From the sequence record OR621298: 64,000 nucleotides of DNA, one strand, 5' to 3'. Every line of letters begins with the position of its first letter. Position 1 is the stretch's first letter. Of the stretch, positions 8,973 through 64,000 are shown piece after piece. The notes beneath the pieces are model-generated. The model searched no databases. It saw only the letters and a list, made by a program, of their open reading frames with translations, and was not told where the DNA came from. The stretch is from Escherichia phage vB_EcoD-Elw. The position numbers and the translations under genes were made by a program.

Positions 8973-8980
8973 AAATTTAT

Positions 8981-39776: not shown

Positions 39777-39778
39777 GT

Positions 39779-39799: not shown

Positions 39800-39824
39800 G
39801 GCTCTGGGCAAATCACCCAGAGCC
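39787..39824 (-). terminator. terminator-like hairpin immediately upstream of the tape measure gene
   Basis: ggctctgg/ccagagcc stem followed (minus strand) by cttttttatt. Confidence 0.55.
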
Positions 39825-39859
39825 AAGCCTCATCGTGGAACGCCCATTGGAGGAAACTT

Positions 39860-40228
39860 TTACCGTGCACGAGATCTAGCATGTGGCTTAACGTTAGGAA
39901 TCCTTCCGTTTTGCGGTTTATGCTTCTCAGCACGTTTACGTGCAGCATCTACAGCTTTAGCATCAAATATATTGATAATGTGTAGAACAAATTCTTTCTC
40001 TATAGGATCAGTAATCCCATAAATATCAAATAAAACACCTAGAGCAGCCTTATCTTTACCTATAAAGATAGGAAAGTCACCTGGTATGAAGCAGTCAATT
40101 AGACTGTTATAAATATTCATACTAGTAGCTACAATAGGTGGAAAGTCTTCAAGTTCAACAGGCATGGCCTTAGGATCAGGCTCTATACCCATTGATTCAC
40201 AAAGTATTAAATATTGTTGTTTAGTCAT
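39860..40228 (-). CDS. putative tail assembly chaperone (downstream ORF of pair)
   Basis: 122 aa; directly upstream of the tape measure gene; no clear SD; its frame is open upstream into the preceding ORF. Confidence 0.45.
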   Translation of the reverse strand: MTKQQYLILCESMGIEPDPKAMPVELEDFPPIVATSMNIYNSLIDCFIPGDFPIFIGKDKAALGVLFDIYGITDPIEKEFVLHIINIFDAKAVDAARKRAEKHKPQNGRIPNVKPHARSRAR

Positions 40229-44854: not shown

Positions 44855-46231
44855 TTAAGATGCAGCGTAAGCACCAGATACAACGCCATTTGCAAAGTAA
44901 CGTTGCAGGTTAACACGCTGAGTAACGTAGTATGCGTCACGCTGTTTACCAGCTTGGCGCTCACGTTCAACAGTAACAGCACGCTGGCGTGGCATTACGA
45001 AGTTATCTTTATAAACAATAACTGCGAACTCTGCGGAAGTAGCTTTAGCTGGGAAGTACTCAGAAACTACAACCGGCAGACCATAAATACGACCAACCTG
45101 ACCCTGCAGTTTAACAGCATCATTACCAACTTGGGCAACATCCTGCCATTCTTCATCTTCCAGCAGATCATAGTAAGCATCCATAGATACAATCAGTACC
45201 AGTTTGCTCAGTTTCAGACCATGACGGCCCAGTTTACGACGCAATTTAGAGATAGTTTTAGCAGTTACCAGTACGGAACCATCAGCTTTAGCTTCAGTAA
45301 TAACTTTAGCACTATCTTCACTAGCAAGAGTCAGCAGACCTTTCGGTTTACCGGAACCATCACCAGTCATGAAGGCTTCTTCAATAGAAACAGCGTGTGC
45401 TTCGATCAGACGCTTACGAAGCAGTGGCAGCAGGGAGAAGATTGCATCTTCTTCAGTTTCATCAGTAATGAAGGACTTAGCAGCCAGTTTGTAAGTACTG
45501 AAGTGGATTTCTTTAAGAGCACCTTTAACTTCATCACCAGTAGTTGCATCAGTACCATAAGTAGAAGCAGCAACCCAAGTAGCTTTACCAGCATCCGGTT
45601 CAACCAGCATAGTAAGAATCTTACTGGACATCGGCAGTTCTTCGAACAGTGCGCCAACTACAAGCTCTTTCTGCAGGTCACGGATAATACGCTGAGAGAA
45701 AATAGTTTCATAGCTTTCACTAGAAACTTCTACAGAAGAAGACTGATTCACTGCTTTCAGGTGTTTTTGACCGTGTTCGGTCTCGAATACGCCCTTTTCC
45801 ATTACATAAGATAACAGAACCAGTTTTTCAACTTCATCTTCAAAGTTTTCCTGAGTACCGTATAGTGCTTTAGCAACACTATCACCAACGAAGGAACGAC
45901 CTTCACGAGCTGTCAGCAGAGATTTAATTTCATCCTGAAGACCAACAATAGTTTCCTGTTGTTTTTCTACAGTTTGTGCAAACAGTTCTGCGCTCTTCTT
46001 AGATTTCTCATCCAGAGACTTAACCAGATCCAGAGCCTCTTCCAGACGCTTACGATCTTCGCCAACTGCTTTAGAAACCAGGTCATTCATACGAGCCAGT
46101 TCTTTTTCTTCCTGCTCTTTACGCATACGTTCAGCTTCCTGAGCTTTCTGAGCAGCGGTCAGACCTTCCAGAGATTTAGCCAGATCACCCAGACCAAGTT
46201 CTTCTTTCAGCTTATTAATATCAATAGTCAT
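44855..46231 (-). CDS. major capsid protein (pb8-like, HK97 fold)
   Basis: 458 aa; host-optimal codons; position after protease and decoration genes. Confidence 0.8.
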   Translation of the reverse strand: MTIDINKLKEELGLGDLAKSLEGLTAAQKAQEAERMRKEQEEKELARMNDLVSKAVGEDRKRLEEALDLVKSLDEKSKKSAELFAQTVEKQQETIVGLQDEIKSLLTAREGRSFVGDSVAKALYGTQENFEDEVEKLVLLSYVMEKGVFETEHGQKHLKAVNQSSSVEVSSESYETIFSQRIIRDLQKELVVGALFEELPMSSKILTMLVEPDAGKATWVAASTYGTDATTGDEVKGALKEIHFSTYKLAAKSFITDETEEDAIFSLLPLLRKRLIEAHAVSIEEAFMTGDGSGKPKGLLTLASEDSAKVITEAKADGSVLVTAKTISKLRRKLGRHGLKLSKLVLIVSMDAYYDLLEDEEWQDVAQVGNDAVKLQGQVGRIYGLPVVVSEYFPAKATSAEFAVIVYKDNFVMPRQRAVTVERERQAGKQRDAYYVTQRVNLQRYFANGVVSGAYAAS

Positions 46232-50953: not shown

Positions 50954-52876
50954 TTAGGTAAGGCGTTGAATTATAAGTTTAATATTTGGTAAGCATGCTT
51001 TCATGCCAATTATATTGCTCATAGAGGATTCTAACCAAATAGAGATATTATTATTTCCATCATTTCTCATATAGTATGTTAGAGTATAGTAACCCGTTTG
51101 ACCTACGGATCCTGGCAACCCAGATACCCAGTACGGAGTTGGAGTATACCCAGCAGCCTGTAATTTACAAGCATTTACTACAGTACCTTTAATAGTAAAA
51201 AATGGTACATATTCTCCTGCAGGTAGGGACAATATTTGGTGAAGTTTTTTATCAATAGTATTGCCACCCATTCTAAACCTACTATCGCCATATTCAGCGC
51301 CTTTAGATAGCATTTCCGTAGGATTAAAGCAGCCAATACCTCCTGCAGACAACCATGTGTCATCTAGGAACTCCATAGTACATACAATTGCACCATTTCT
51401 ACTACTATTAAGATCTAGTCCCACGGTACCAACATGCACGGAACCATTACCCTGAAATACTATGTTACCAGATAGTACAGTACTTCCGCTACCACCTAGA
51501 AGTCTTAAAGGTAGAAGATTTTCACTCCAAACGTCCCCATAATTACTCCCTATTTTTGGAGGATTACTAGAAACATACCAAGATGCTGAAGGTAAAAAGT
51601 TATAAATACTAACTACATTAGTATTTAAACCACCAACGTTACCACCCTTAATACTTGGTGCGTTATTGCTTTCTGTGGTTGGTAGTCCAAATGTTGCTAT
51701 GCCAGAGATCCCAGTAGAGGGGCCACCCATACTCAAGTTACACCCAACATCACGAAAATCAGCTCTGCTCCCTACATTAAAGTTTTTCTCAACAAAGTTG
51801 ATAAACTTCCAAGATGTATTATTAACGTTAATACCTTTAATAATAAATTCAGTGGGGCTTAATTTTATATCATTACCTGTAAATAATCCAGCATCAATAC
51901 TATAACCTGAACCATTATACACTAAGTTAGTAACATACCAGGTAATTTTAGATGGATAAATACCGAGGTGCTCACTATATATACCTATGGGCCCATTAGC
52001 AGCATCATTCGGATCACCCATACTTTCCCAATACGCATAGTTAGTGGGATCAGCACGTGCGAAACCTACAGAGTACTTAGGAGCCGAGGGATTGCTAGGA
52101 TTAGACATAAAGTTAAGAGCCCCTGAACTCGACGCCCCATGTACAGCTCCAGCAGTGGTGTAGTTGGGCCCTTCCATACCATAAAGAACTCTATTACAAG
52201 ACCTACCACGAACATATATGGCGTTAAATCCAAAGTTTCTAGCTCCGGGATGCCTAACGTAGTCGCTAGGGATAGTTAGAGTTCCTGAATCCGGCACTAC
52301 ATATCCTGAACCATCCCAGGCAGACTTATAAAGAGCGGCACCCCCTAAATACATTGCACTAGATGCAAACCCTCTACGCCCACTAAAGGCGCCAAACATA
52401 TGCTGACATCCAGTACCGTCTCTTAATTTCTGGGGGATCGTACCGCTAGTACCACTATTAAAATAGCCTACATCAAGAGATAGATCAGCACTAGCTGTTA
52501 TTTGTGTTTTTAAACCACCTTGAGACATGACCTGCGGATTTATAATTCCATACGCTTTAGCTCCTACCCCCATAGACATGCCAGATAGCATATGTCTAGA
52601 GCCATCTGAGAACTCAATCTCTGTCAGCACAACCCTATTAGGATCATTATTATGTAACTGGGTAATTCTGCTAGGCATATCAGACCAGTAGTAATCTCCA
52701 GCACCTTGATCTAGCCTCAACCCTGTGGAGTGAGTTTCTGTTATGATAACATGGGGCATATCTGAATGGAATATGGTCTGAGAGTCAGGATTAATATGTT
52801 GATTAGTATCTCCGCCACTACCCCTGCGTAGAGAGAGTATAGATTTGTTATTTAGCTTGCCAGCGAAAAAACTCAT
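50954..52876 (-). CDS. oad: receptor-binding tail protein (pb5-like)
   Basis: 640 aa; Gly/Ser/Asn-rich beta-type sequence; last late gene, beside an llp-like lipoprotein gene as in T5. Confidence 0.7.
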
Positions 52877-52955: not shown

Positions 52956-53189
52956 ATGAAAAAATTATTTTTAGCTATGGCAGTGGTACTTCTTTCGGCT
53001 TGCTCTACTTTTGGGCCTAAAGATATTAAATGTGAGGCCTACTATGTACAAGATCATGTGAAATATAAGGCTAATGTTTTTGATAGAAAAGGGGATATGT
53101 TCCTGGTGGCACCAATCATGGCCTATGGATCTTTCTGGGCTCCAGTAAGCTACTTTACCGAGGGGAATACATGTGAAGGAGTTTTCTGA
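52956..53189 (+). CDS. llp: lipoprotein Llp-like (receptor-blocking superinfection exclusion)
   Basis: 77 aa; lipobox LLSAC; convergent with the receptor-binding gene. Confidence 0.75.
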   Translation: MKKLFLAMAVVLLSACSTFGPKDIKCEAYYVQDHVKYKANVFDRKGDMFLVAPIMAYGSFWAPVSYFTEGNTCEGVF

Positions 53190-53301
53190 GGAGAATCCCT
53201 CCCATAAACCCATGCCACTTAGGGTGGATCCTAGGTCAAAACTAGTTCACAATGCAATTGAGGTCATTCAGAACACCATATAAGATAAAATGTTATGACT
53301 T

Positions 53302-53487
53302 GTGCAATTGCTAGAATATTCCAAATACCACATTTACGGGAGTATGAAAGACATGTCAAACGGCAACAAAAGAAAGAACAGACGTGGAGAAGTGTACGAT
53401 AGCTGGATTAATAGCTTTGGGTTCGGAACTATTCTATTCTTTATTTTCGTAGGTTTTTGGTTAGCAGCTATGGCGGGGTGGATCTAA
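53302..53487 (+). CDS. small membrane protein (start uncertain)
   Basis: 61 aa with a C-terminal hydrophobic helix; internal ATG at 53344 is an alternative start. Confidence 0.4.
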   Translation: MQLLEYSKYHIYGSMKDMSNGNKRKNRRGEVYDSWINSFGFGTILFFIFVGFWLAAMAGWI

Positions 53488-53594
53488 TGGACTGGGTAAT
53501 TATTGCACTACTGGGGATTGTGATTATTGGGCAATGTATCTTAGATAATCACTTAGCTAGAATCGAAACCTTACTATCGGAGAAACGTAAATGA
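53487..53594 (+). CDS. small membrane protein, 35 aa (not in ORF track)
   Basis: ATG 53487 overlaps the upstream TAA; encodes MDWVIIALLGIVIIGQCILDNHLARIETLLSEKRK. Confidence 0.35.
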   Translation: MDWVIIALLGIVIIGQCILDNHLARIETLLSEKRK

Positions 53595-53785
53595 TGGAAG
53601 TGGCAATTACACTAATGGTAATATTAGTCTGGGCAGTTTTCATTATTTATTACACCGTGTACGTTCGCCTAAAAACGCTAGAAGCTCAAGTGAAGCAACA
53701 GCAATTTGCTATAGAAAAACTATCAGAATTGCAACGTTGTGATAGTACCCGTATTCTGCAAATTGGGAGGGAATTAGATGTTTAG
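53591..53785 (+). CDS. small membrane protein
   Basis: 64 aa; N-terminal TM helix; ATGA overlap with the upstream stop. Confidence 0.4.
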   Translation: MMEVAITLMVILVWAVFIIYYTVYVRLKTLEAQVKQQQFAIEKLSELQRCDSTRILQIGRELDV

Positions 53786-54023
53786 TATTGTAATTGCTTT
53801 TATTATCGGGATACTCGCGGGGGTTTTCGGGACAACTGCGGCAATCAACAAGCATCGTAAATATATTGCGGGAGTGACGCGGGAGATTGCGGAAAGGGAG
53901 CGGAAGTTTGACGAGAAACGTGCGGAGTTTGAGCGAGAATGGTCGGATGGATCTCGGGCGTCGCGGAAGAGATTTCGTGAGTTTAGACCTGAACATCTGT
54001 TTGATGACCCTTCTATGCGCTAA
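53778..54023 (+). CDS. small membrane protein with charged C-terminus
   Basis: 81 aa; N-terminal TM helix and Arg/Glu-rich tail; may straddle a terminal-repeat boundary. Confidence 0.35.
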   Translation: MFSIVIAFIIGILAGVFGTTAAINKHRKYIAGVTREIAERERKFDEKRAEFEREWSDGSRASRKRFREFRPEHLFDDPSMR

Positions 54024-54174
54024 TTTGACTTTTGCCAAATTTCATAAGATTACACATGGAGGTGTGTCCACTGGCTGGCTAGATGAGAATGAGTCTCATT
54101 ACCGCCCGGTACTTAGCAGGCTAATAGTCACGGCATGTTATCATTACACACCGTGACTATTTCAACTTTAATTA

Positions 54175-54909
54175 TTACGCAACTTTTAATTTCTCAATAT
54201 ATTGTTGCGGGCTGCAACTATATTCTGCGCGTTCTTCCTCGGTCATACTTTCCCAACATAATTGCAGGCGGTCGGCTAGGAACTGATAATCATTATCATC
54301 CTCAAGAGATTCATCAATAAAGGTTTCACCTATCAATGTAACCCCAATCGATAGAATATCGTTAACGGCTTGCGCGTCCAGCGTTTTAAATCCGTATGAT
54401 GCCGCCGCTGATAGCACGCCTTTATGATCATCAATCATCGTGAAATCAGCGTTCGGATATAATTGTTTAAATAACTCAAAGTAATGGCTTTTATAAATAG
54501 CGTCTTTGCTGTGGTATATCTCGCTAACTTTATCAGCCTCAAAATATTTGTGTAGTGTATCGCGGGAAAATACACGGATATTACTATCCCCACGCCCTCG
54601 CAATCCTTGTTTGCGCAAATAATAATAATCCGACTTGCTCATTAGTCGAGCGGTGCAAATAATGTTTAACGTGTTAACGTCATTCATACATTGGCGCATA
54701 TATGTAACAAGGGGCAATAGTGTATCTTGCATTATTAAATCATGTTTGCAGGCTTCATTTTTATACTTATTTAAATCTAAATTGCCCTCGCTATCAAAGC
54801 AAGGCGCTACGCGATGGAAAGAATTAATGATAGTGCCGTCCAGATCCCAAATCATGACGCGGGAAATATGCGGGAAATTACGGGTAATATTCGTTTTAAC
54901 TTGATTCAT
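54175..54909 (-). CDS. dmp: HAD-family 5'-deoxyribonucleotidase (dmp-like)
   Basis: 244 aa; HAD motif I WDLDGTII and C-terminal MIDDHKG; first gene of the pre-early block. Confidence 0.7.
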   Translation of the reverse strand: MNQVKTNITRNFPHISRVMIWDLDGTIINSFHRVAPCFDSEGNLDLNKYKNEACKHDLIMQDTLLPLVTYMRQCMNDVNTLNIICTARLMSKSDYYYLRKQGLRGRGDSNIRVFSRDTLHKYFEADKVSEIYHSKDAIYKSHYFELFKQLYPNADFTMIDDHKGVLSAAASYGFKTLDAQAVNDILSIGVTLIGETFIDESLEDDNDYQFLADRLQLCWESMTEEERAEYSCSPQQYIEKLKVA

Positions 54910-54989
54910 TTTGTTACGTTCTCCATTTAAGGGATTAGATTAATTCAGCATTACCCGCTATTTATAAGCGGGTAATAATAAATTAACTA

Positions 54990-55382
54990 TTAAAGACCAT
55001 ACGCCAACGCATCAGCAATAAAACTAATATCTTCACCAGATACACCGGAACGAATGCCCGCGCAGGTATATACCTTTGCGCTGGTCAATTGATCATCGAG
55101 GCAAGCGGGGCAAGGCGCGACAACTGCAAAGGCTAGGCCGGATTTTACGGCGTCGATGATAATCGTTTCTTGTTTCACAGTGTCAACATAAACACCTTTT
55201 GCTTTAATATGGCTAGTTAGTTTACCTTGCGTATAGGCAAAGGTAGTAACCTGCAAAGCGTCGTTAAAGTCCAATAGCTCATCAATAACGTGCCCCGCCT
55301 CGACGTGGTAACGTTCACCATTAGAATAAACCAGAACAATGGAAGATTGAGCGCGATCGAATGGGATATTTTGCTTTTTCAT
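54990..55382 (-). CDS. hypothetical pre-early protein
   Basis: 130-aa ORF. Confidence 0.45.
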   Translation of the reverse strand: MKKQNIPFDRAQSSIVLVYSNGERYHVEAGHVIDELLDFNDALQVTTFAYTQGKLTSHIKAKGVYVDTVKQETIIIDAVKSGLAFAVVAPCPACLDDQLTSAKVYTCAGIRSGVSGEDISFIADALAYGL

Positions 55383-55422
55383 ATTTATAAAACTCCAATT
55401 AATTTAATAAAGGGTATTTAAT

Positions 55423-55680
55423 TTACTTGATAATAATCTGCATTTGATACGGCGTTAATTCACCATTTACGGGTAAATTATTATCGCTTAGCCACTCATA
55501 AAAAGCGTCATCATCGTCAAAAGGGATAATATCATTATCACGATAATCGACCGTAATAATCCCATCCGTATTAGTTTTGGCGGCTAGGATAGGCCCGAAG
55601 CTGTAAACTTTATCGGATTCCATTTCATCCGGTGAAATAAATGCTTTTTCGTCCAGCGTTTTGGGTAATGTAACTTTCAT
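55423..55680 (-). CDS. hypothetical acidic pre-early protein
   Basis: 85-aa ORF. Confidence 0.45.
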   Translation of the reverse strand: MKVTLPKTLDEKAFISPDEMESDKVYSFGPILAAKTNTDGIITVDYRDNDIIPFDDDDAFYEWLSDNNLPVNGELTPYQMQIIIK

Positions 55681-55736
55681 TCTAATTTAGCTCCTATAAT
55701 AGCGGCTATATTTCAAGCCGCTAGGGTATTAATTAT

Positions 55737-57401
55737 TTACGCAAAAAATTTACCGTTCTTAAAATCGATCAAAGTACGCTGACCATTTGCATAGGTAATT
55801 AAATGCGTTTGTGTCCAGCTTGACGCGCCAACGTTGTAACCCATGTCCAGACTACCAGCCACGCCAGCGGTATATACCCCGCCGTAAATGCTGGCGGTAT
55901 GAGTGTGCCCCGTGTTTAATTTGCCCAATTTCTTAAACTGTTTCGGATTGCCACGGCTGCCGTTTATGCCATTGTGACCGTGTACGCCGCATTCAATGCC
56001 TGCAATTTTAAATGATTGGTCAGTCGTTAGGAAAATGGCGTTAAACTCGCAACCTGCAACCTTACGCAGCGCATAATCTAGCACGTTGAAAGTATCGTCT
56101 TTTTCTGCAATAGCTCCGTAAATCGCGGCATTCAGGCGGTGATATAGTTCCGCGTTCGCTGGGTCGTCTTTAATGTTAGCATTACGATCATCAAGCCAAC
56201 GGGATAGCGCCAAATCGTGATTCGATTCAACAATGATTGTTTGCGAGAAATCGCGCTCCATTGATTCCAGTACGCGCCCCGTATCGATGAGATCATCCAG
56301 AACTTTATCACGTCCGGCGGCGTATTGTTTTGCTAGGAATACACCCGAAGCGCGGTTGTGATGGTTGCGTGATGTAAAATCGTGAACGTCATGGATAAAC
56401 TGATATTTTGGTTTAAGAATATCAAGCAAGCTATTTTCGCCAGCCCATGACGCAATGGCACAATCATCATCAAGTTTTTCGGCGTGTATGTCGCCATATT
56501 GCAAGCCTAAAACATGCCCCGATGTTTCATAGCATCCGGCGGGAGTAGCGCAAACATTCAGATCATAAAACACCCCGCTTTCGTCCATTGTTTCAAGCTG
56601 GCGAACAAAAAACTCACCGTCTTCGTCGAACTCAACAATCAGCGCACCGAAGTTATGCAGTGCTTCCGCTTTCTGTCCTGCTTTCTGCTGGATGTAATTT
56701 TTAAGCGTTGCCGTGCCAGTTGAATACATGCGGCGCACTACTTCACCTTTTAAAGCTGGCACGCTTTCGGCGGTGATTTTAGCGTGACCAATTGCCAGAC
56801 CTTCCAGATTAAGCGCGGTTGCAGTTTCAGCGAATCCAGAAAGCGGATAATCTGCGGTGGGCAAAACATTAATTTCAGCCATGAAAGCAAAACGGCGATT
56901 ATTCAAAAACACGTTTTTGCTGCAAATATATTTATCGAACGCGGAATCATATTTTATTCCATCCGCGCCCTCGCCATTTTGGAATCCGTTTTTATTATAA
57001 ATATACTTGCTAACCAGCAAATCAGCGCCGATATATTTAGCAAATTGCTCCAGTGAGGCTAAAAAGTTTTTATGCGGGAACGTATTATTCTGAATCGATG
57101 TAATAATAAAGCGTTTGCCTTGTTTTACTTCCCAGCTTTCCACCGTGCTAGAAACAATCCCCGCCGCTTCTGGGCGCTCATCGTTTTTAATGGCTTTTGC
57201 TACTTTCGCCGCTTTCGGTTTCGCTGGTTTATTTGCTTCCAGCCAATCACAAATAGCGGTGGAATGTTTTGGAGTATCGTAAACCGCTTTTGATATATCG
57301 TCACAAACTTCCAATTTAGTGGCGCGCAGGCGTTTACCGTAGAAATTAAAGTCAGCGGCCATTTTCAGGATAACGGTTTGTTTTTCTGCGGAAATAATCA
57401 T
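55737..57401 (-). CDS. A1: A1-like pre-early protein, metallophosphoesterase-fold nuclease
   Basis: 554 aa; calcineurin-like motifs GDIH, ESNHD, HGH, GHTH; size close to the 556 aa I recall for T5 A1. Confidence 0.7.
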   Translation of the reverse strand: MIISAEKQTVILKMAADFNFYGKRLRATKLEVCDDISKAVYDTPKHSTAICDWLEANKPAKPKAAKVAKAIKNDERPEAAGIVSSTVESWEVKQGKRFIITSIQNNTFPHKNFLASLEQFAKYIGADLLVSKYIYNKNGFQNGEGADGIKYDSAFDKYICSKNVFLNNRRFAFMAEINVLPTADYPLSGFAETATALNLEGLAIGHAKITAESVPALKGEVVRRMYSTGTATLKNYIQQKAGQKAEALHNFGALIVEFDEDGEFFVRQLETMDESGVFYDLNVCATPAGCYETSGHVLGLQYGDIHAEKLDDDCAIASWAGENSLLDILKPKYQFIHDVHDFTSRNHHNRASGVFLAKQYAAGRDKVLDDLIDTGRVLESMERDFSQTIIVESNHDLALSRWLDDRNANIKDDPANAELYHRLNAAIYGAIAEKDDTFNVLDYALRKVAGCEFNAIFLTTDQSFKIAGIECGVHGHNGINGSRGNPKQFKKLGKLNTGHTHTASIYGGVYTAGVAGSLDMGYNVGASSWTQTHLITYANGQRTLIDFKNGKFFA

Positions 57402-57442
57402 AGTAATAAAACTCCATTAAAGGGATTAAAAAACGTTTGTTA

Positions 57443-57486
57443 TTGGCAAATATTGCCAAATATAACGCCTATTATTTGAGGCGTTA
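57443..57486. promoter_or_regulatory. two palindromes upstream of the A1-like gene
   Basis: ttggcaa-ata-ttgccaa (57443-57459) and taacgcct-8nt-aggcgtta (57463-57486). Confidence 0.4.
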
Positions 57487-57498
57487 TAATTTGCAACA

Positions 57499-57744
57499 TT
57501 AATTTAAAGGCATAAGGCTAGAACTAACACCACAAACAACGGCGGCAATAAAACAAATCAGACCTAAACGCTTTGCTAACTTAGATTTACGTTTAAAATA
57601 ATATGAATCTAAATCATTTTGAAAATAAGCGAATAGTAATGAGGCCGCCATAATAAATAAGCCTAGAATTAAGGATTCAGTAGGGTAAAAGATCATTTTA
57701 ATAACTCCAGTCAAAGGGAAATTATAGTGGGGAATATTCCCCAC
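57499..57744 (-). CDS. small two-helix membrane protein
   Basis: 81 aa with two hydrophobic segments. Confidence 0.45.
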   Translation of the reverse strand: MGNIPHYNFPLTGVIKMIFYPTESLILGLFIMAASLLFAYFQNDLDSYYFKRKSKLAKRLGLICFIAAVVCGVSSSLMPLN

Positions 57745-57753
57745 TAATTAAAT

Positions 57754-58170
57754 TTATTCGCCTGCGGCTTGTTTCACTTCATCGGCAACGCCTAACAGTT
57801 GCGCCACGGCGTCCAGCGTTTCCAGTTTTGCGCTTTCCAGTGATGCCAGATCGTCGGCGTCTTTGATAATGCCGGAATCGATAGCGTGTTTTGCAATAAC
57901 GCGCACATAATGCGCTTTGCGGATTGAGCTACCGCCGCCAACTTTGCGCGGCTTATCGCTTTTCTGATACGCTTTTGCGCTGGTCAATTTTGAGCGAACG
58001 GACACGGGGGAGGCCGCGCCAACTGCTTTTGCAATCTCTTTCAGGCCGTCGCTATTTGCGAAATCTAAACCGTTTTCATTAATTAACTGCTGGTACATGG
58101 TAACAGCTTTTTGGGTGTTTTCTTCATTCCATGCAAATTTTGCGGATTTTTCGGTTTTAACGTTAGCCAT
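57754..58170 (-). CDS. A2-like pre-early protein (putative)
   Basis: 138 aa; position directly upstream of A1; assignment by synteny only. Confidence 0.4.
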   Translation of the reverse strand: MANVKTEKSAKFAWNEENTQKAVTMYQQLINENGLDFANSDGLKEIAKAVGAASPVSVRSKLTSAKAYQKSDKPRKVGGGSSIRKAHYVRVIAKHAIDSGIIKDADDLASLESAKLETLDAVAQLLGVADEVKQAAGE

Positions 58171-58269
58171 GATTGTAGCTCCTATTAGTTTAATTTAAGG
58201 GATAAGATTAACATAATGTTAATCGTTATATCCCCCGAACTACTAGGGGGATATAAAGTTAACACTAAA

Positions 58270-58521
58270 TTATAAAACAGCTTCCCATTTTTCGTTACGC
58301 TGGACAACCTTTACAACGTCGCCGGATTTAACGCGAACGCTAAAAACGGTTTTGCCGTTGTTACTCCGTTCCGTTTCAGCGTATACCGCGTCGATTGTAT
58401 CGAACGGCATAAGCGCCGCGCCTTTAATGCGTTCGGCCTTTCCGGTTAATTCATCCGTTTTAGTAACGAAAGGAATAAAAACGGATTGACCAACTTTCGG
58501 CGCGGTAATAACGTTTTGCAT
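58270..58521 (-). CDS. hypothetical pre-early protein
   Basis: 83-aa ORF with AGGAG RBS. Confidence 0.45.
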   Translation of the reverse strand: MQNVITAPKVGQSVFIPFVTKTDELTGKAERIKGAALMPFDTIDAVYAETERSNNGKTVFSVRVKSGDVVKVVQRNEKWEAVL

Positions 58522-58556
58522 AATATAAACTCCTAGTTATTTGGGGATTGTTCCGC

Positions 58557-58586
58557 ATTACCTGCTAGAAAGTAACAGCAGGTAAT
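58557..58586. promoter_or_regulatory. palindrome upstream of the 83-aa ORF
   Basis: attacctgct-agaaagtaac-agcaggtaat, perfect 10-bp arms, no U-tract. Confidence 0.4.
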
Positions 58587-58719
58587 AAGTAACAATCCGC
58601 TCGCCAATATAATCAATTTAAAGAACTCCACGCAGGCCGCTATATCCCAGTTAGGGGGCGGGGCACATTATGGTAAGTGCCGACCGTCAAATTTTATCAA
58701 GTTATCGCTCTTATCGAAC

Positions 58720-58744
58720 TGGGTACATCTTAAAGCCTATCGGC
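58720..58744. repeat. 25-bp perfect inverted repeat, copy A
   Basis: tgggtacatcttaaagcctatcggc; exact reverse complement of 58988-59012. Confidence 0.85.
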
Positions 58745-58751
58745 TAGGGTG

Positions 58752-58955
58752 TCAAACAATTTTTTGCAGTTTTTTATGATTTTCTTTTAAGTCAATCATA
58801 ATATTACGCCAGATCATTTCCAGACCTTGCTGGCGGCCTTTCTTGTACTGCTTAAATCGATATTTTACCGATCTTTGCGCTACTGTCAACAAATTTTTTG
58901 TTTTGCTGTCCAGTGCCTTGCTAGGTTTACCAGTGATCAATAAAGTTTGTTTCAT
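58752..58955 (-). CDS. small basic protein enclosed by the 25-bp inverted repeats
   Basis: 67 aa, Lys/Arg-rich; ATGA-type overlap with the upstream ORF. Confidence 0.4.
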   Translation of the reverse strand: MKQTLLITGKPSKALDSKTKNLLTVAQRSVKYRFKQYKKGRQQGLEMIWRNIMIDLKENHKKLQKIV

Positions 58956-59242
58956 ATCGTCGATTCCTTATAATGTATAAGTTTACCGCCGATAGGCTTT
59001 AAGATGTACCCAATTTTTAAAGAGCGCGGCGGTAAACTTCCCGCCGTGTAGTTCGTCATTGCCGCCCTACGAGATAAATAATAGGGGATTCCCGAAAATG
59101 GCGCAACCTTATTTTTGTAAAGAAATGTAAAGACAAACGCCACCGGACACCATGCGGCGACCGGGGCGCGGCGCATTAAAATTAAAAGAAACGGGCGCGC
59201 GAATACCATAAAACCCAGCAGGTTGGCAAGTAATTTTTTCAT
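58952..59242 (-). CDS. hypothetical protein with N-terminal hydrophobic segment (doubtful)
   Basis: 96-aa ORF; weak RBS; its coding sequence contains inverted-repeat copy B. Confidence 0.3.
   Translation of the reverse strand: MKKLLANLLGFMVFARPFLLILMRRAPVAAWCPVAFVFTFLYKNKVAPFSGIPYYLSRRAAMTNYTAGSLPPRSLKIGYILKPIGGKLIHYKESTI
58988..59012. repeat. 25-bp perfect inverted repeat, copy B, with nested local stem
   Basis: gccgataggctttaagatgtaccca; flanked by gtttaccgcc (58981-58990) and ggcggtaaac (59028-59037). Confidence 0.85.
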
Positions 59243-59411
59243 TTATATTTGCCTTGCCCTACTTGACAAAACTTAAAAAGCTCGTGGTAGCGATAAACGA
59301 GGGTAGGCAATGCAATGGCATGGCTAAAACTTTCATCGCGTTCTAGGGCGTTTTAGGCGCATTCTAGCCTTGTTGATAACTTATCCCCAAAAGCAAAAAT
59401 GAAATTTTCCT

Positions 59412-59448
59412 AGTTATCCACTTGACTTTTATTTTCCAGTGGATAACT
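59412..59448. promoter_or_regulatory. inverted pair of DnaA-box-like sites
   Basis: agttatccac-17bp-gtggataact; each half is TTATCCACt, one mismatch from the consensus TTATCCACA. Confidence 0.5.
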
Positions 59449-59594
59449 ACTTATTTTATGAAATAAATTAATTGACTTTTATTTGTTAGTATGCATCGGA
59501 AGAATAGCAGACTAATAATTACTAGAATAATAATCATGCTGGTGGATTGTAACGGCCTAAACTATCAGCAGACTATTAATCACGAAAAATCTCG

Positions 59595-59625
59595 TTAGCT
59601 AACTAACTATTTCATGATGTATAAT
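59595..59625 (+). promoter_or_regulatory. candidate sigma70 promoter with early-type leader
   Basis: TATAAT at 59620-59625 followed by atacatataaatt, as in the early promoters; -35 weak. Confidence 0.35.
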
Positions 59626-59741
59626 ATACATATAAATTAATGAGAAATAATAATTATAATAAATAATAACTACAGTAAATAATAACTATAAGAAACTATC
59701 GGCCTAAGTGAGAACCACTATCATTTAAGTTATACACAAAG

Positions 59742-59811
59742 TTATCCACAGCACTTTTTGACTTTACACGATAGGCGGCGATATAAGGACTTTTACACAG
59801 ACTTATCCACA
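59742..59811 (+). promoter_or_regulatory. two consensus DnaA boxes bracketing a candidate promoter
   Basis: TTATCCACA at 59742-59750 and 59803-59811; TTGACT 59758-59763 and TATAAG 59782-59787 lie between them. Confidence 0.5.
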
Positions 59812-60104
59812 GGTTATTCCACTGTATAAATATACAGGGTAAAAAGGTAGTGTTAACAACTGCAATCAATTTTAAGCGGCTTAAATCGCATTCTAACGAG
59901 CTAAACGCTGCGGGGTAATATTAAAGTAAAGCCTTAATGCGTCACCCTGGTGGCTTCGCCGTGGTTTGCTCTTTATTGCACCGCTGCGCGGTTAGCATAA
60001 AAATAGGCGCTAGGCAAGGAAAATAAAAAGGTAAAATAATATTTGCCTATGCTAGAAATTTACCTTTATCATTCACTCACCGATTAACGAGGGAGGCCGA
60101 ACAA

Positions 60105-61115
60105 ATGAGGCTTTATAAACCTGATAATGCCACCGTTTTAAAAGGTGCATTGCGCAACCTGCTGGATGGTAGCAAGTCAACCAGCATTAAACATTTTATT
60201 AACAAGATTGAAACTATTCATCAAAACTTTTTTGATGATTATGACGCTTATGATATGGATAGTTTTCTACCCTTATATAGACAAGGGGCAACGCTAGTTT
60301 TATATAATCGGGATTGCCATATCTTTACAGGCAGGGGAGCGGGGCCGGATACCGATTTTATTGTTGCGCAGGGTAATAATATTGTTGCGTATCATAGCAA
60401 TTCAGGCCGTCAATCATTTAATATAAATAGTTTTGAGCTTATTGGACTTGATCTGATAAATGGACTTTCTAGCATTGAGGGATTTTTAGATGTTATCTGG
60501 AAGTATTTACCCGCTGGATGGCATAAGCCGGATAACGACGGATCTCAATATACCGGTATAATGGCTTTTGATGGCGACGGTAATTTTTTGTTACCACGGG
60601 AGCTATACCCATATATTTATGATGGGGATATAGAAAGCGCTGGTTTTTCTTTCTGGAAAGATGAAGATCAGATTATTGACAGCGTAGAAAACCATGCTGT
60701 AAATTCTAACACTCAAAGCGTTAACACTCAAACTACTGAAAACAAAGGAAAAAACACTATGACCAAGATTGCTAACATCGTTGCCGCTAATAAATCCGCC
60801 GTTGTAAATGCTGCAAAACTGGAAGCGGGTAAAATTGCACTGACTCAAATTACGAAAGTAGCGGCTAAAAAAGCACCGTTTATGATTAAAGGTTATATTG
60901 ATACACCTATCGGTCGAGTAGTGATTGCCAACCTGCTGGGCGTAGCGGTTGACCAGTACGCCACAAGTAACCAAAAGGCGAAAGCGGTGGCAGGTGCAGC
61001 TATGGAAGCGGCTATGTTAGAAATGGTGCAAAGTTTTAACATCGCTGAGATGATTGATGAAATGGTAAAAGGTATTGATATTTCTACTTTTACCACTAGC
61101 ACCGAAAGCGAGTAA
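60105..61115 (+). CDS. hypothetical pre-early protein
   Basis: 336 aa; first gene of the rightward cassette; GGGAGG RBS. Confidence 0.55.
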   Translation: MRLYKPDNATVLKGALRNLLDGSKSTSIKHFINKIETIHQNFFDDYDAYDMDSFLPLYRQGATLVLYNRDCHIFTGRGAGPDTDFIVAQGNNIVAYHSNSGRQSFNINSFELIGLDLINGLSSIEGFLDVIWKYLPAGWHKPDNDGSQYTGIMAFDGDGNFLLPRELYPYIYDGDIESAGFSFWKDEDQIIDSVENHAVNSNTQSVNTQTTENKGKNTMTKIANIVAANKSAVVNAAKLEAGKIALTQITKVAAKKAPFMIKGYIDTPIGRVVIANLLGVAVDQYATSNQKAKAVAGAAMEAAMLEMVQSFNIAEMIDEMVKGIDISTFTTSTESE

Positions 61116-61180
61116 TAATATTAAGCGGGGATTGTTACCCCGCTTTACTATTCCCTTGTTAACTAATAGGAGGCTAATAA

Positions 61181-61675
61181 ATGGCTGATGAAAAATATGG
61201 CTTCTCACTGGGAGAAGTGAGCACGGCAAAACATGATATGATCATTTTGGTCGATTGTCATACTGGCTATTGCGGGGAAGGGAACACCGAGGAATATTTT
61301 GTTCCTGCTGGTACGGATCTGGACGCTTTCGCTCAGGAAATGGCTATTGATAATGCTTCTCGTTTTGGTAGCGATGGTTACGAAGACGAAGAAACTGGCG
61401 AATGGTATGAAAATGAAAACGTATATGCAAGCCTTTATCATTATCAATTAAGTAAATCCGGCACATATGTAAACGGCGGCGATCCTATTAATTCCGTCAT
61501 GAGATTAATTATTAAATATGGCGGCGTCGAGATAGTTGGTAACAAAGCGGTAATATACGCAAATCGATTAAAACAGCTTGTTTATATTCCTGATAGTACC
61601 CGATGGGATGAATATGCTGTTTTGCATGACGAATTGAAACGATGTTTCAATATTGAATCCTTACAAGTAGTCTAA
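61181..61675 (+). CDS. hypothetical strongly acidic pre-early protein
   Basis: 164 aa, about 29 Asp+Glu versus 11 Lys+Arg; AGGAGG RBS. Confidence 0.55.
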   Translation: MADEKYGFSLGEVSTAKHDMIILVDCHTGYCGEGNTEEYFVPAGTDLDAFAQEMAIDNASRFGSDGYEDEETGEWYENENVYASLYHYQLSKSGTYVNGGDPINSVMRLIIKYGGVEIVGNKAVIYANRLKQLVYIPDSTRWDEYAVLHDELKRCFNIESLQVV

Positions 61676-61780
61676 TGTAAAGTTTTGTAAAGGTCGCCTT
61701 TTATGGTGGCCTTTTTTGTTATAATGCCTTTACACCGTTTGAGGACGGTTGAAAATTTTCCCAAAAATTGGAGGCTTAAA

Positions 61781-62011
61781 ATGGTTGCTTATTCTTCTGC
61801 TAGTCATCTGTTCACCGCTCAAGGCTGGGTATCTAACCGCGTTATTATTCACGAAATGGTGCAAGAATATGGCATTGCTAAAACATACAATACCATTCAG
61901 GCGCTTTATGATAATGATCAAATCGATCAGCAAACGGCGGGCTTTTTGCTGGATACCCTGAAAGCAGAACATTGCACCAAAAAACAAGCGGCTAAAATTG
62001 TTTTAATGTAA
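61781..62011 (+). CDS. hypothetical small protein
   Basis: ATG at 61781 with GGAGG RBS; the ORF track starts further upstream. Confidence 0.45.
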   Translation: MVAYSSASHLFTAQGWVSNRVIIHEMVQEYGIAKTYNTIQALYDNDQIDQQTAGFLLDTLKAEHCTKKQAAKIVLM

Positions 62012-62052
62012 TTAATAACGGGGCGTTATTTTCGCCCCACTAACTAGGGGGA

Positions 62053-62208
62053 ATGAAAATGGTTATTTTTCGAGCTATTTTAGCGGGTATCTTGGGCGCT
62101 ATTTTATCGTTGTTTGCAATAGCTTTCGGCGTTCACGCGGTTATTATTGGCGCGGGTATCGCTGCATTTTCTTATCTGCTGGGCTGCATGACTAGTAAAG
62201 GAGAATAA
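62053..62208 (+). CDS. small hydrophobic membrane protein, 51 aa (not in ORF track)
   Basis: ATG 62053; MKMVIFRAILAGILGAILSLFAIAFGVHAVIIGAGIAAFSYLLGCMTSKGE. Confidence 0.4.
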   Translation: MKMVIFRAILAGILGAILSLFAIAFGVHAVIIGAGIAAFSYLLGCMTSKGE

Positions 62209-62210
62209 AA

Positions 62211-62423
62211 ATGATCCGCAATGTTTCCCTTGCCCGTTCGAAAGGCTTTAAGCTGGTGGATGTTAACACGTTCGAGCGTGAAGATTGTAAAATCGAATAT
62301 GTAGCACGTAATAAGAATGCCTTTCGTGTTACAGAAAAGAAATTTGACAAGCGCGGCAACGTGATCGCTGAAACGGTTAAACACTTTGCCACCTTTTACG
62401 CTGCGTTTCGTGGGGTGTTATAA
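62211..62423 (+). CDS. hypothetical small protein
   Basis: 70 aa; AAAGGAGAA RBS. Confidence 0.5.
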   Translation: MIRNVSLARSKGFKLVDVNTFEREDCKIEYVARNKNAFRVTEKKFDKRGNVIAETVKHFATFYAAFRGVL

Positions 62424-62424
62424 A

Positions 62425-62769
62425 ATGGTTATTTATGAGGGCAACCGCTTTGTTGCTAATTGCCGCCCTGCATTGCTAGCAAATTACTTAAATCAGCTTT
62501 CACCAGCTTATAAGGGCGTTATTAATATTTATGAAGGCAAGGCGCATTATAAAATCAATGCGGTCGTTGCCCGTGAACTAGCGTTTCAATTTTTGACCTT
62601 TGCATCTTGTGACGTTCAGGTCATGGGTGAAGCGTTAATTGCAGAAAATGAAGATGATTTTATTAATATTTTTCGCAAGATATGCACCGAGCGCCTGATA
62701 ATGAAAGGCGCTTATATTCAATCCACTGCGGATAGTATTGAAACAGCGTTTCGAAAGGTGGCGCAATGA
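62425..62769 (+). CDS. hypothetical protein
   Basis: Start placed at ATG 62425, just after the upstream stop. Confidence 0.45.
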   Translation: MVIYEGNRFVANCRPALLANYLNQLSPAYKGVINIYEGKAHYKINAVVARELAFQFLTFASCDVQVMGEALIAENEDDFINIFRKICTERLIMKGAYIQSTADSIETAFRKVAQ

Positions 62770-62969
62770 GCAATAAAATTGTTGTAACCAAAATCAGTAC
62801 AATGGTTGATGTTTTTTACGTGCCCGATACGCCGGAAAACCGGCAAGCGGTCGAGCGTGGCGAGTATGATAAAGTGATTTATGATCACGATGGTTATTAT
62901 CAGCATTTGGTCGATTCCTATGGGGAAGAGGAAAAGATCACGCATCAATTACCGGAGGATGGTTTATGA
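62766..62969 (+). CDS. hypothetical small acidic protein
   Basis: 67 aa; overlapping start and stop. Confidence 0.45.
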   Translation: MSNKIVVTKISTMVDVFYVPDTPENRQAVERGEYDKVIYDHDGYYQHLVDSYGEEEKITHQLPEDGL

Positions 62970-63221
62970 AACGATGGTTTAATCACTGGTATAAGCGGTT
63001 TTTAGTACGCCGTCGCAAATCTAGACATCAAGATGAGTGGCGGGAGTGGGCAAAGCGTAACGGTTGCCCGCTACTCTGAGAACGACGGGGATTAGCTCCC
63101 CGTTTTTCCATGCCTCCAGTTAAATACCCCCTTGTTTTAGTATCCCCACCAAAATTAAACGCGTTAGAATGCGATCTAGGACGTTTTAGCGGTATATTAG
63201 AATTATTCACTACATAGGAAT

Positions 63222-63332
63222 ACTGTATATTTATACAGTAGGATAAGCTGTGGATAAGTCTGTTAATAACGCCTCAAAATGGCTAGGATTCTGTCAAGTC
63301 AAATCGTGCTGTTAATAAGTCTGTGGATAACT
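63222..63332. promoter_or_regulatory. DnaA boxes (inverted orientation) and palindrome
   Basis: TGTGGATAA at 63249-63257 and 63322-63330; palindrome actgtata-tt-tatacagt at 63222-63239. Confidence 0.55.
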
Positions 63333-63344
63333 TAAATAATAGTG

Positions 63345-63506
63345 TTTCTCACTTCCATTCTTAAATGCAAATCATTATCATTCGCATTTCACTTTCTAAA
63401 TGAGAATCATTTCACTTCTTGAATAGTTCTCATTTCACTTTTTAAATGCGAATTATTATCATTCTCATTTCGCTTTTTAAATGATTCTTATTATCATTCG
63501 CATTCA
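63345..63506. repeat. five degenerate ~30-bp direct repeats
   Basis: Units of form tt(t/c)tTAAATG(c/a)gAAT(t/c)ATTATCATTCGCATTTCAC, imperfect, no unique spacers. Confidence 0.7.
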
Positions 63507-63509
63507 GGC

Positions 63510-63536
63510 GCGCAGGGCAATTGCCCTGCGCTTTTG
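63510..63536 (+). terminator. GC-rich palindrome with T-tract
   Basis: gcgcagggc-aatt-gccctgcgc followed by tttt. Confidence 0.45.
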
Positions 63537-63757
63537 TGCAAATCCGACATTGCTCCACGGGTGTTACGTGCGGGCGTGTATGTGCGAATCCGACAATTTT
63601 TGGTAGTGTGCAAATCCGACCCGAAAAATTTTTATAGTGTGCAAATCCGACAATGAATTTTCCCAAAAACTCCAGCAATCCGATGCTGCGCATCAATCCT
63701 GTGGAATTAGCTAGAATATGTGCAAATCCGACATGGGTTTATTTGTGCGAATCCGAC
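63536..63757. repeat. six direct 13-bp iterons GTGC(A/G)AATCCGAC
   Basis: Copies at 63536, 63582, 63608, 63639, 63720 and 63745, same orientation; degenerate copy near 63674. Confidence 0.75.
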
Positions 63758-64000
63758 AAGATTTTTGTGACTTTGATTGGAGGGTGTGTGATTGTATGGG
63801 TTTGAGGAGAAGATGAGAGAGCGAGAAAAATTTGAGGGAACTGTGAGAGGGGCGCAGGATTGGTGCGGAGCACCTGATTTGCGGGGATTTTGGGGAAGAG
63901 TTGAGATAATTTGGGAAGATTTGGGATAGGTGCAGATAAAGTAAAATTTTATTAGCAAAACGAGGCAAAATAGCTTGACAAGTGAAAATTTCTGTGGCTC

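Follow-up and report, generated by a model that had tools for sequence, protein, structure and literature searches.

The 64,000 nucleotides of Escherichia phage vB_EcoD-Elw analysed here (sequence record OR621298, hereafter the window) carry at positions 53810-59300 the genes dmp, A1 and A2, in a block that an earlier note, made from the letters alone, had described as a pre-early module richer in GC (guanine plus cytosine) than the remainder. The real oddity of this block is a sharp switch in oligonucleotide signature at the boundary of the terminal repeat, and not its GC content. Judging from homology and gene order, the window derives from a T5-like phage, a Tequintavirus, and the block forms part of its terminal repeat of ~10 kb, which would correspond to the first-step-transfer (FST) DNA. 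On the same grounds the true pre-early block is taken to be wider than 53810-59300 and to cover ~54160-64000. The two-step transfer of the DNA and the pre-early expression are experimental properties in the literature on T5, BF23 and Bas33 (PMC10644984; bioRxiv 10.64898/2026.04.02.716235).

The signature switch at the repeat boundary

By comparison with relatives the window was divided into the following segments:

1-27.2 kb, plus strand: early replication genes (synteny with annotated relatives)
27.3-52.9 kb, minus strand: late structural and packaging genes, the last of which encodes the receptor-binding protein, 50954-52876 (synteny)
52956-54023, plus strand: a few small genes, including llp (synteny)
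~54160-64000 (window end), both strands: terminal repeat, which carries the entire distinct signature (homology with relatives)

The ratios of observed to expected dinucleotide counts (o/e) differ between these segments as follows:

CpG: repeat 1.37, early 0.79, late 0.64
GpC: repeat 1.57, early 1.10, late 1.19
AA/TT: repeat 1.24, early 1.03, late 0.97
AG/CT: repeat 0.75, early 1.09, late 1.22
GA/TC: repeat 0.78, early 1.04, late 0.96
AC/GT: repeat 0.77, early 0.90, late 0.91

Measured in 2-kb windows along the sequence, CpG o/e lies between 0.44 and 0.93 up to 54 kb and between 1.10 and 1.53 across 54-64 kb. The per-gene medians are 1.51 for the pre-early genes (13 of the 16 lie above 1), 0.77 for the early and 0.62 for the late genes (p=6e-8). 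Longer words behave likewise: compared with the remainder of the window CGC/GCG is 3.8-fold and CGCGC 28-fold enriched in the repeat, AGA/TCT is 2.5-fold depleted, and CTAG reaches 1.8 times its expectation. For the tetranucleotide GCGC we counted 60 sites within the 9.8 kb of the repeat versus 32 in the other 54 kb, which makes it ~10-fold denser, and its sites are scattered over the whole repeat, most densely in the minus-strand arm.

The position of the switch was delineated with a second-order Markov classifier trained on T5 only. All 1-kb bins between 0 and 53 kb scored negative and all bins between 54 and 64 kb scored positive, with a change point at 53792. In the reciprocal test the signature of T5 ended at ~9886, beside the injection-stop region and before the end of the repeat at 10219. 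The left edge of the block as first proposed thus agrees well with the change point, whereas its right edge does not hold, as the anomaly continues through the whole repeat to 64000.

As a separate observation, GCGC is under-represented in the early region (1-27218), with 10 sites observed versus 22.6 expected under a maximal-order Markov model. The T5 record quotes a consensus for the nick sites of T5, and the same tetranucleotide forms its core.

A property of the DNA, in and out of frame

The signature is not restricted to codons. The enrichment of CGC/GCG and the depletion of AGA/TCT are seen in each of the three sense-strand frames, and CpG at the junctions between codon positions 3 and 1 reaches 1.35 in the pre-early genes versus 0.72-0.77 outside them. 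More specifically, the GC content of third codon positions (GC3) depends on the neighbouring bases, as listed here for positions flanked by two G/C versus two A/T:

pre-early: 0.657 versus 0.224
early: 0.26 versus 0.39
late: 0.22 versus 0.31
E. coli: 0.62 versus 0.56

The neighbour dependence of the third position thus has opposite signs in the repeat and in the rest of the genome. The same rule is apparent when the bases are reduced to strong (G or C) and weak (A or T) ones (S/W), strong bases of the repeat standing beside strong ones and weak beside weak. At lag 1 the S/W autocorrelation of the repeat amounts to 0.19, compared with -0.05 to 0 elsewhere in the window and 0.09 for E. coli, and it is gone by lag 3. 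It is also nearly as high in the intergenic DNA of the repeat (0.178) as in its coding DNA (0.189), compared with 0.079 in other intergenic DNA. This presence out of frame and in non-coding DNA implies that translation cannot explain the whole effect.

The modest GC excess is a by-product of this compartment-wide, DNA-level signature. That the excess is incidental follows from Klebsiella phage Kpn2-P1, one of the relatives examined, because its pre-early and early genes are practically equal in GC3 (0.455 and 0.468) and yet the neighbour rule is still reversed: GC3 between G/C and between A/T neighbours is 0.65/0.30 in the pre-early versus 0.40/0.55 in the early genes.

Several simple causes were tried and rejected. 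RNA secondary structure does not differ. DNA curvature, in the form of A-tracts or G/C runs recurring every 10-11 bp, was not found, and the clustering is limited to lags 1-2. Neither GC-biased gene conversion nor a mutational shift in GC that is uniform fits, as the two-fold codon families ending in C or T are hardly moved and GC3 between A/T neighbours lies below the value elsewhere in the genome. A single repeated motif can be dismissed as well: the top 7- to 8-mers are A/T-rich, and the only repeat-specific words are DnaA boxes and the repeats of the injection-stop signal (iss). The excess nearest-neighbour stacking energy of the repeat is -0.022 kcal/mol per step, the same as in E. coli; this value is small and merely re-describes the signature.

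Genes and elements of the repeat

The nucleotide sequence of 53810-59300 is 91-95% identical to pre-early DNA of many Tequintaviruses, among them NBEco002, oldekolle and chee24, and positions 1-25000 of the window match the replication module of the same phages at 96-97%. The genes dmp, A1 and A2 lie in conserved order on one strand, adjoining the receptor-binding protein/llp end of the late region (PHROG matches and synteny with T5, oldekolle and chee24). The start of the repeat at ~54160 was taken over from relatives, namely chee24, whose right terminal repeat is annotated as starting 16 bp ahead of the stop codon of dmp, and T5, with its left repeat at 1-10219; a single copy falls inside the 64-kb window. 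The order of elements in the T5 repeat is dmp/A1/A2 on the minus strand, a non-coding repeat region, a plus-strand arm of small genes and the injection-stop region. In the window, where genes were called as open reading frames (ORFs) and by synteny, the corresponding elements are:

53778-54023, plus strand: membrane-protein ORF of 81 aa (annotation in phage oldekolle), just outside the inferred repeat boundary
54175-54909, minus strand: dmp, deoxynucleoside-5'-monophosphatase (phrog_415, E=1e-56; syntenic with T5.001)
54990-55680, minus strand: two small pre-early ORFs of 130 and 85 aa, counterparts of T5.002/T5.003 (synteny with T5 and oldekolle); CpG o/e 1.37 and 1.77
55737-57401, minus strand: A1, DNA-transfer/host-DNA-degradation protein, predicted metallophosphatase (phrog_1745, E=9e-244), 98.9% identical to an annotated A1; GC3 0.432, CpG o/e 1.48
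57499-57744, minus strand: small membrane protein, counterpart of T5.005 (synteny), GC 32.9%; its real start is probably later than the ORF start
57754-58170, minus strand: A2, DNA-binding protein required for second-step transfer (phrog_1725, E=2e-51)
58270-58521, 58752-58955 and 58952-59242, minus strand: three small pre-early ORFs (synteny with T5.007-009); CpG o/e 2.39, 0.83 and 1.74
59243-60104: non-coding divergent-promoter/repeat region between the pre-early arms, with DnaA-box-like sites; GC 35%, GpC o/e 1.75, CpG o/e 1.12, lag-1 S/W autocorrelation 0.165
60105-62969, plus strand: pre-early genes (phrog_4263 and phrog_4227 matches; syntenic with T5.011-017), comprising a T5.011-like ORF of 336 aa and 61181-61675, 61703-62011, 62053-62208, 62211-62423, 62386-62769 and 62766-62969; GC3 0.370, CpG o/e 0.92-1.71
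62211-62423, plus strand, within this arm: Ung-dependent nickase (PHROG match)
62970-64000: non-coding repeat region, equivalent of the T5 iss, which is annotated at the matching place

The first of these ORFs (53778-54023) already has repeat-type values (GC 48.4%, GC3 0.476, CpG o/e 1.72) in a length too short for a conclusive call, and the change point at 53792 coincides with its start. Either the repeat starts earlier here than in chee24, or the gene shares the same constraint.

A2 and the early protein D3 (10093-10503, plus strand) both belong to phrog_1725 and are 30% identical, and hence constitute paralogues placed in two compartments. Over ~415 nt A2 has 38 CpG versus 16 in D3, and at shared residues A2 uses GGC, AGC, GCG and CGC where D3 has GGT, TCT, GCT and CGT.

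The perfect DnaA box TTATCCACA occurs four times, at 59742 and 59803 on the plus strand and, in inverted orientation on the minus strand, at 63249 and 63322, so that these boxes are confined to the two non-coding parts of the repeat. The 14-mer TGTGCAAATCCGAC is present four times on one strand at 63535-63719, near the window end. Both the DnaA boxes and this array in the iss region fit the description of the T5 iss by Davison (bioRxiv 10.1101/866236).

GC content and codon usage

With 42.1% GC, compared with 38.9% outside it and 39.2% over the complete window, 53810-59300 is the GC maximum among windows of the same length (0.09% reach it; mean 39.2%, standard deviation 1.2%). It is therefore indeed the richest 5.5-kb stretch, but the excess amounts to ~3 percentage points and not to the ~10 that had been estimated by eye. 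The 45-50% GC quoted for dmp/A1/A2 applies to A1 (44.9%) and A2 (48.7%) only. The ORF at 54990-55382 has 44.8%, the small ORFs at 57499-57744 and 58752-58955 have ~33-35%, and dmp has only 39.3%, yet its CpG o/e of 1.56 and GpC o/e of 1.66 are clearly of the repeat type. The early and late modules, put at 35-40%, were measured at 39.5% and 38.9%, respectively, the upper end of that range.

The GC excess sits wholly at third codon positions, whereas the GC content at first and second positions (GC1 and GC2) is alike between the gene classes. Median GC3 is 0.390 for the pre-early, 0.333 for the early and 0.265 for the late genes (Mann-Whitney, pre-early versus early p=2e-4, versus late p=8e-7); the pooled values are 0.419 and 0.370 for the two pre-early arms, 0.323 for the early and 0.266 for the late genes. 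The codon adaptation index (CAI) was calculated with weights from a small reference set of 28 E. coli K-12 ribosomal-protein, EF-Tu, EF-G and rpoA genes, E. coli serving as host reference where the natural host could be E. coli or Salmonella. Pooled CAI is 0.397 and 0.381 for the pre-early arms, 0.381 for the early and 0.344 for the late genes, the pre-early genes being marginally higher (p=0.06 and 0.03). The comparison of GC and CAI profiles that had been suggested as a check thus yields a significant difference between modules in GC3 and a marginal one in CAI.

Relative synonymous codon usage (RSCU) also differs between the temporal classes. Its correlation with a small set of 36 ordinary E. 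coli genes is 0.63 for the pre-early, 0.26 for the early and 0.02 for the late genes; the correlation with highly expressed E. coli genes is no better for the pre-early (0.45) than for the early genes (0.47). RSCU values of individual codons are:

AGA: pre-early 0.20, early 1.15, late 2.16
CGC: pre-early 2.67, early 0.65, late 0.50
GCG: pre-early 1.21, early 0.37, late 0.32
GGC: pre-early 1.57, early 0.66, late 0.47
AGC: pre-early 1.81, early 0.65, late 0.51
ACG: pre-early 1.09, early 0.38, late 0.26

AGA accounts for 3% of the Arg codons in the pre-early, 19% in the early and 36% in the late genes, and AGA, ATA, CTA and GGA together for 28, 48 and 68 per 1000 codons, respectively. T5-type phages have their own tRNAs for these four and for several A-ending codons, and in T5 itself the tRNA genes are located at 28-41 kb, beyond the FST DNA; set and position are those of T5, the tRNA set of the phage studied here lying beyond the 64-kb window, within which no tRNA genes were found. 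The depletion of host-rare codons, combined with tRNA genes located only in second-step DNA, supports the idea in the earlier note that a host-like composition would suit genes translated before the takeover by the phage, as does the RSCU correlation of 0.63. The wording host-optimal, on the other hand, is not appropriate, as CAI is barely raised. In fact, the pre-early genes favour ACG, GCG and CCC, codons that are avoided in highly expressed E. coli genes, and the two-fold C/T-ending families (Asp, Asn, Tyr and Phe) barely shift. The codon bias is thus neither a uniform GC shift nor a translational optimisation.

High expression with host-optimal codons had also been proposed for four genes outside the block, and these are exactly the top four in CAI among the 73 scored ORFs:

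13409-14176, plus strand: D5 DNA-binding/transcription regulator, CAI 0.78, the window maximum (phrog_323, D5-like; equals T5.118)
44855-46231, minus strand: major capsid protein, late, CAI 0.72 (phrog_10, major head protein)
21585-22355, plus strand: D11 single-strand DNA-binding protein, early, CAI 0.68 (phrog_1607; equals T5.126)
10093-10503, plus strand: D3 DNA-binding protein, early, CAI 0.61 (phrog_1725; equals T5.113)

All four are abundant, stoichiometric proteins.

Conservation of the signature in relatives

Five Demerecviridae genomes, a small sample, were examined for the signature. T5 shows the same switch as the window phage, it is present in Kpn2-P1 (A1 73% identical) and in Serratia phage Kamaji (A1 61%), and it is weaker in Vibrio phage Chester (A1 33%). 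The shift from AGA to CGC is likewise found in four relatives. Expressed as Karlin distance (x1000), the repeats are ~200-280 away from their own genomes in the T5-like and Serratia phages (218 and 233 to the early and late regions of the window), versus 24-90 between enterobacterial repeats. The tetranucleotide log-odds of the repeats correlate at 0.81-0.96 with one another, whereas the coefficients are ~0 for each repeat against its own genome and 0.48 against E. coli.

The evolutionary state of the signature was assessed from singleton differences, polarised by parsimony, among four aligned Tequintaviruses (the window phage, oldekolle, chee24 and T5). Third-position changes in the repeat are balanced, with 180 from W to S versus 168 from S to W, which implies an equilibrium GC3 of 0.42 against a current 0.405, and there are 57 CpG gains versus 72 losses. 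The early region, with 532 versus 440 third-position changes and an equilibrium GC3 of 0.37, has a separate, lower set point. Hence the signature is at substitution equilibrium and is actively maintained in the four phages compared. The repeat also diverges faster than the early region (87-93% versus 93-96% identity among the same four), the density of singletons being ~2.4-fold higher at codon positions 1 and 2 and in non-coding DNA and 1.3-fold higher at position 3.

These results do not bear out the suggestion that the block may be a separately acquired module, as the same signature is found in T5 and in the Klebsiella, Serratia and Vibrio relatives, and substitutions are balanced. Neither a patchy distribution nor amelioration was observed, the region being syntenic in all relatives and at equilibrium. 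The homing endonuclease gene hegG (T5 5411-5929) lies inside the T5 repeat, occurs only in some phages and is absent from the window phage. It does not have the signature (GC3 0.237), and location in the repeat therefore does not quickly impose it. In the stretch of T5 analysed we also noted a 2-kb segment in the ltf gene (38000-40000) with 47% GC, a CpG o/e of 1.08 and 18 GCGC/CGCG; it is the sole non-repeat segment of T5 that nears repeat-type values and may be a mosaic.

Two unrelated early-expressed compartments were compared. The class I genes of T7 show no signature switch relative to the class II genes, and the terminal repeat of SPO1 shows no dinucleotide switch relative to its unique region (CpG o/e 0.48 versus 0.42). 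The host-takeover genes of the SPO1 repeat (1-13185) do have a GC3 of 0.428 versus 0.354 in the adjacent unique genes. As the cause, a feature common to host-transcribed phage DNA that enters first, or to terminal repeats that are long, can on this basis be rejected. T7 expresses Ocr first, which constitutes another strategy against restriction, and the DNA of SPO1 contains hydroxymethyluracil, another solution to the same problem; both are consistent with the lack of a switch there. True host mimicry was rejected as well, in view of a Karlin distance to E. coli that is no smaller than that of the early region, and of frequencies of CTAG and CCWGG that are unlike those of E. coli.

Avoidance of restriction sites

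FST-specific avoidance of restriction sites can be seen directly. For EcoKI, EcoAI, EcoR124I, EcoR124II, EcoBI, EcoRI, EcoRV and Eco29kI (the motif panel of PMC10644984, plus EcoBI) there are 0 sites in the repeat versus ~14 expected from dinucleotide-preserving shuffles. CCWGG (EcoRII/Dcm) occurs once in the repeat, at 59946, versus 8.3 expected, whereas the rest of the window has 62 versus 57.6. There is also no site in the repeat for EcoRI, HindIII, BamHI, PstI, EcoRV, SalI, KpnI, SacI or PvuII, and ClaI sites (ATCGAT) are 9-fold denser there. As to six-bp palindromes, 34 of the 64 are absent from the repeat and the observed/expected ratio is 0.71, compared with 0.79 in the early and 0.89 in the late region. 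Moreover, the clustering of like bases reduces the frequency of half-sites that are of mixed composition and contain adenine, and 79% of the Type-I-like bipartite motifs have fewer than two sites in the repeat versus 67% in 23 control segments.

The avoidance of six-bp palindromes is found genome-wide and is strongest for those that start with C or G, from which it follows that some restriction avoidance reaches beyond the FST DNA.

Experiments have established that Tequintaviruses are restricted solely via sites in the FST DNA (PMC10644984), and that this DNA lacks sites for EcoRI, EcoRV, EcoKI and similar enzymes (Davison & Brunel 1979, as cited in PMC10644984; Skutel et al. 2023, PMC10644984). 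The depletion of sites in the repeat of the window agrees with these experiments.

Possible origins of the signature

As a tentative explanation, which we consider plausible though far from assured, selection on unprotected DNA maintains the signature, through avoidance of defence sites and dependence on host tRNAs. The FST DNA would enter the cell alone and be transcribed by unmodified host RNA polymerase, and its products would be dmp, A1, A2 and around twelve small proteins for the takeover of the host. A selection restricted to DNA that must survive and be expressed 'naked' in an intact host may then deplete recognition sequences of restriction-modification systems and short palindromes on the one hand, and host-rare codons whose phage tRNAs would come only from second-step DNA on the other. 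Both of these pressures are seen in the data; that they generate the nearest-neighbour signature is what we infer.

A number of points weigh against this explanation. The step from restriction avoidance and tRNA limitation to S/W clustering is itself one that we infer, and a nearest-neighbour effect that is equal in coding and non-coding DNA is also expected from a context-dependent mutation bias. GCGC and CGCG, which are possible restriction targets themselves, are strongly enriched. The Type-I-like bipartite motifs form a class that was chosen after inspection of the data, and the gain in absent 6-mers overall is small (12.7% versus 9.5%, z=1.6). The signature goes in the same direction as that of E. 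coli but overshoots it, the Karlin distance between repeat and E. coli (145) is no better than that of the early region (149 or 111), and the diagnostic words differ from those of E. coli, with CTAG over-represented and CCWGG nearly absent. Finally, the comparison includes only five Demerecviridae genomes, with gene calls based on ORFs.

The main rival, which we judge somewhat unlikely, is a region-specific and context-dependent bias of mutation or repair, with the signature as a neutral equilibrium. Such a bias could stem from host enzymes that repair or nick-translate the nicked FST DNA before phage enzymes are made, or from heteroduplex repair during the repeat-mediated formation of concatemers. 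It would account well for an effect that is strictly nearest-neighbour (0.19 at lag 1, ~0 from lag 3, and free of 10-11 bp periodicity), strand-symmetric, independent of frame and as strong between genes as within them. The equilibrium of the composition and the faster divergence of the repeat (87-93% versus 93-96% identity) fit too, as does the direction, which is that of E. coli (lag-1 value 0.09, equal excess stacking energy of -0.022 kcal/mol per step), and a hegG without the signature (GC3 0.237) is expected if the build-up is slow. However, there is no known mechanism that would give host enzymes a dominant share, and the phage polymerase replicates the repeat like everything else. The long repeat of SPO1 does not show the switch, so that being a repeat is insufficient, and words that are a hallmark of repair in E. 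coli are not recovered (CTAG at 1.8 times expectation, CCWGG 1 versus 8.3 expected). The simple form of the bias, GC-biased conversion, is excluded by the C/T-ending families, as Asp, Asn, Tyr and Phe codons barely shift.

A purely translational adaptation, in which the genes are tuned to the host tRNA pool and to codon-pair preferences before phage tRNAs are available, appears improbable. It would explain the RSCU correlation with average E. coli genes (0.63 versus 0.26 and 0.02), the depletion of AGA, ATA, CTA and GGA given T5 tRNA genes at 28-41 kb outside the FST DNA, and the AGA-to-CGC shift in four relatives; in other phages, too, early genes have been documented to differ from late ones in their codons (PMC5683454), and the repeat genes of SPO1 have a raised GC3 (0.428 versus 0.354). 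Nevertheless, CAI is hardly raised, and the codons gained (ACG, GCG, CCC and GGG) are not those preferred in highly expressed E. coli genes. A signature that extends out of frame, across codon junctions and into non-coding FST DNA would make translation a partial cause at most; E. coli genes themselves show nearly no neighbour dependence of GC3 (0.62 versus 0.56), and the close relative BF23 does not have a tRNA-Arg (PMC10644984).

Equally doubtful is the proposal that the signature, for instance in the form of dense GCGC/CGC clusters, serves as a mark of self by which A1/A2 bind the FST DNA or by which it is spared from A1-dependent degradation. Such a mark would account for the survival of the FST DNA while the host chromosome is destroyed, and the escape of unmodified T5 DNA from A1 has been stated as an open question (bioRxiv 10.64898/2026.04.02.716235). 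The signature accompanies A1 and A2 in 5/5 of the Demerecviridae examined, is missing from T7 and SPO1, neither of which has A1, and spans exactly the DNA that is present during the degradation of host DNA. It deviates in the same way as host DNA, however, and would hence be a poor discriminator; moreover, no single long motif is over-represented, the top words being A/T-rich and the repeat-specific ones being DnaA boxes and iss repeats.

A horizontally acquired module that keeps the composition of its donor is hardly credible: the compositional discontinuity is sharp, the Karlin distances of 218/233 to the own early and late regions are very large and A1 homologues exist in phages of the GC-rich hosts Caulobacter, Rhizobium and Rhodobacter, but all Demerecviridae genomes examined have both module and signature, even that of the Vibrio phage with an A1 of 33% identity, synonymous sites would have ameliorated long ago, and an ancient acquisition, though conceivable, would not account for the maintenance of the signature. 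A recent acquisition is rejected by the balanced substitutions (W to S 180 versus S to W 168; CpG gains 57, losses 72), by the family-wide conservation, by GC1 and GC2 that resemble the rest of the genome, and by flanks in which no mobility genes were found, next to the lack of tRNA genes in the window.

Relation to known systems

Cowe and Sharp are said to have related, in 1991, the early versus late codon usage of T4 to the tRNAs that this phage encodes. The present case resembles temporal codon usage of this kind and that found in a survey of 14 phages (Mioduser et al. 2017, PMC5683454; phage T5 is not named in its main text): synonymous codons differ with the time of infection, and later genes are richer in codons read by phage-encoded tRNAs. 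Unlike such a temporal partition, the bias in the window is not limited to in-frame codons but consists of a nearest-neighbour rule that reverses sign and extends to other frames and to non-coding DNA. Its extent matches a physical compartment, the first-injected DNA, and not merely a class of expression. The same sites of the EcoRI, EcoRV and EcoKI type are absent as in the FST DNA of T5 and BF23 (PMC10644984); those studies count individual sites and make no mention of a global di- or tetranucleotide signature, an enrichment of CpG and GpC or a reversed neighbour rule. Both the early/late codon differences with phage tRNAs (PMC5683454) and the FST DNA's avoidance of restriction sites (PMC10644984) are already known.

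With compositional genomic islands the repeat shares a sharp shift in GC3, codons and di- and tetranucleotides within one replicon, but unlike these it is universal and syntenic in all relatives examined, is at equilibrium and is not flanked by mobility genes. With the class I region of T7 and the terminal repeat of SPO1 it shares that the DNA is expressed first, by host RNA polymerase, and encodes functions in host takeover and anti-defence. Unlike the FST DNA, these two keep the dinucleotide signature of their own genome and a negative neighbour dependence. No description of the compartment-wide signature or of the reversed neighbour rule was found in the literature searched, the coverage of which excluded the Davison 2015 review (PMC4743489) and the 2005 T5 genome paper, so that an earlier mention is possible.

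Implications

Whole-genome values of GC, CAI or k-mers as used for host prediction average two very different compartments in such phages and should be read with care. The signature could also serve to mark the FST boundaries in T5-like genomes that have been assembled with collapsed terminal repeats. Should its cause prove to be mutational, one small viral chromosome would harbour two regimes of mutation, which is rarely seen.

On a more speculative note, and in our view unlikely rather than likely, the FST DNA of the Demerecviridae may be a distinct 'sequence compartment' with a family-wide signature that is adaptive, either as camouflage against restriction, bacteriophage exclusion (BREX) or Type I targets, or as a physical or recognition mark with respect to A1. 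Camouflage, if true, would lower the odds of any mixed-composition, adenine-containing target in the only 10 kb that are unprotected. T5-like phages resist most restriction systems unless the target falls in the first 8% of the genome, and the escape of the FST DNA from host nucleases and from the phage's own A1-dependent degradation has been called unresolved (bioRxiv 10.64898/2026.04.02.716235). Exactly this first-entering DNA has a separate signature in five genomes, which provides a concrete handle on the question of how it escapes.

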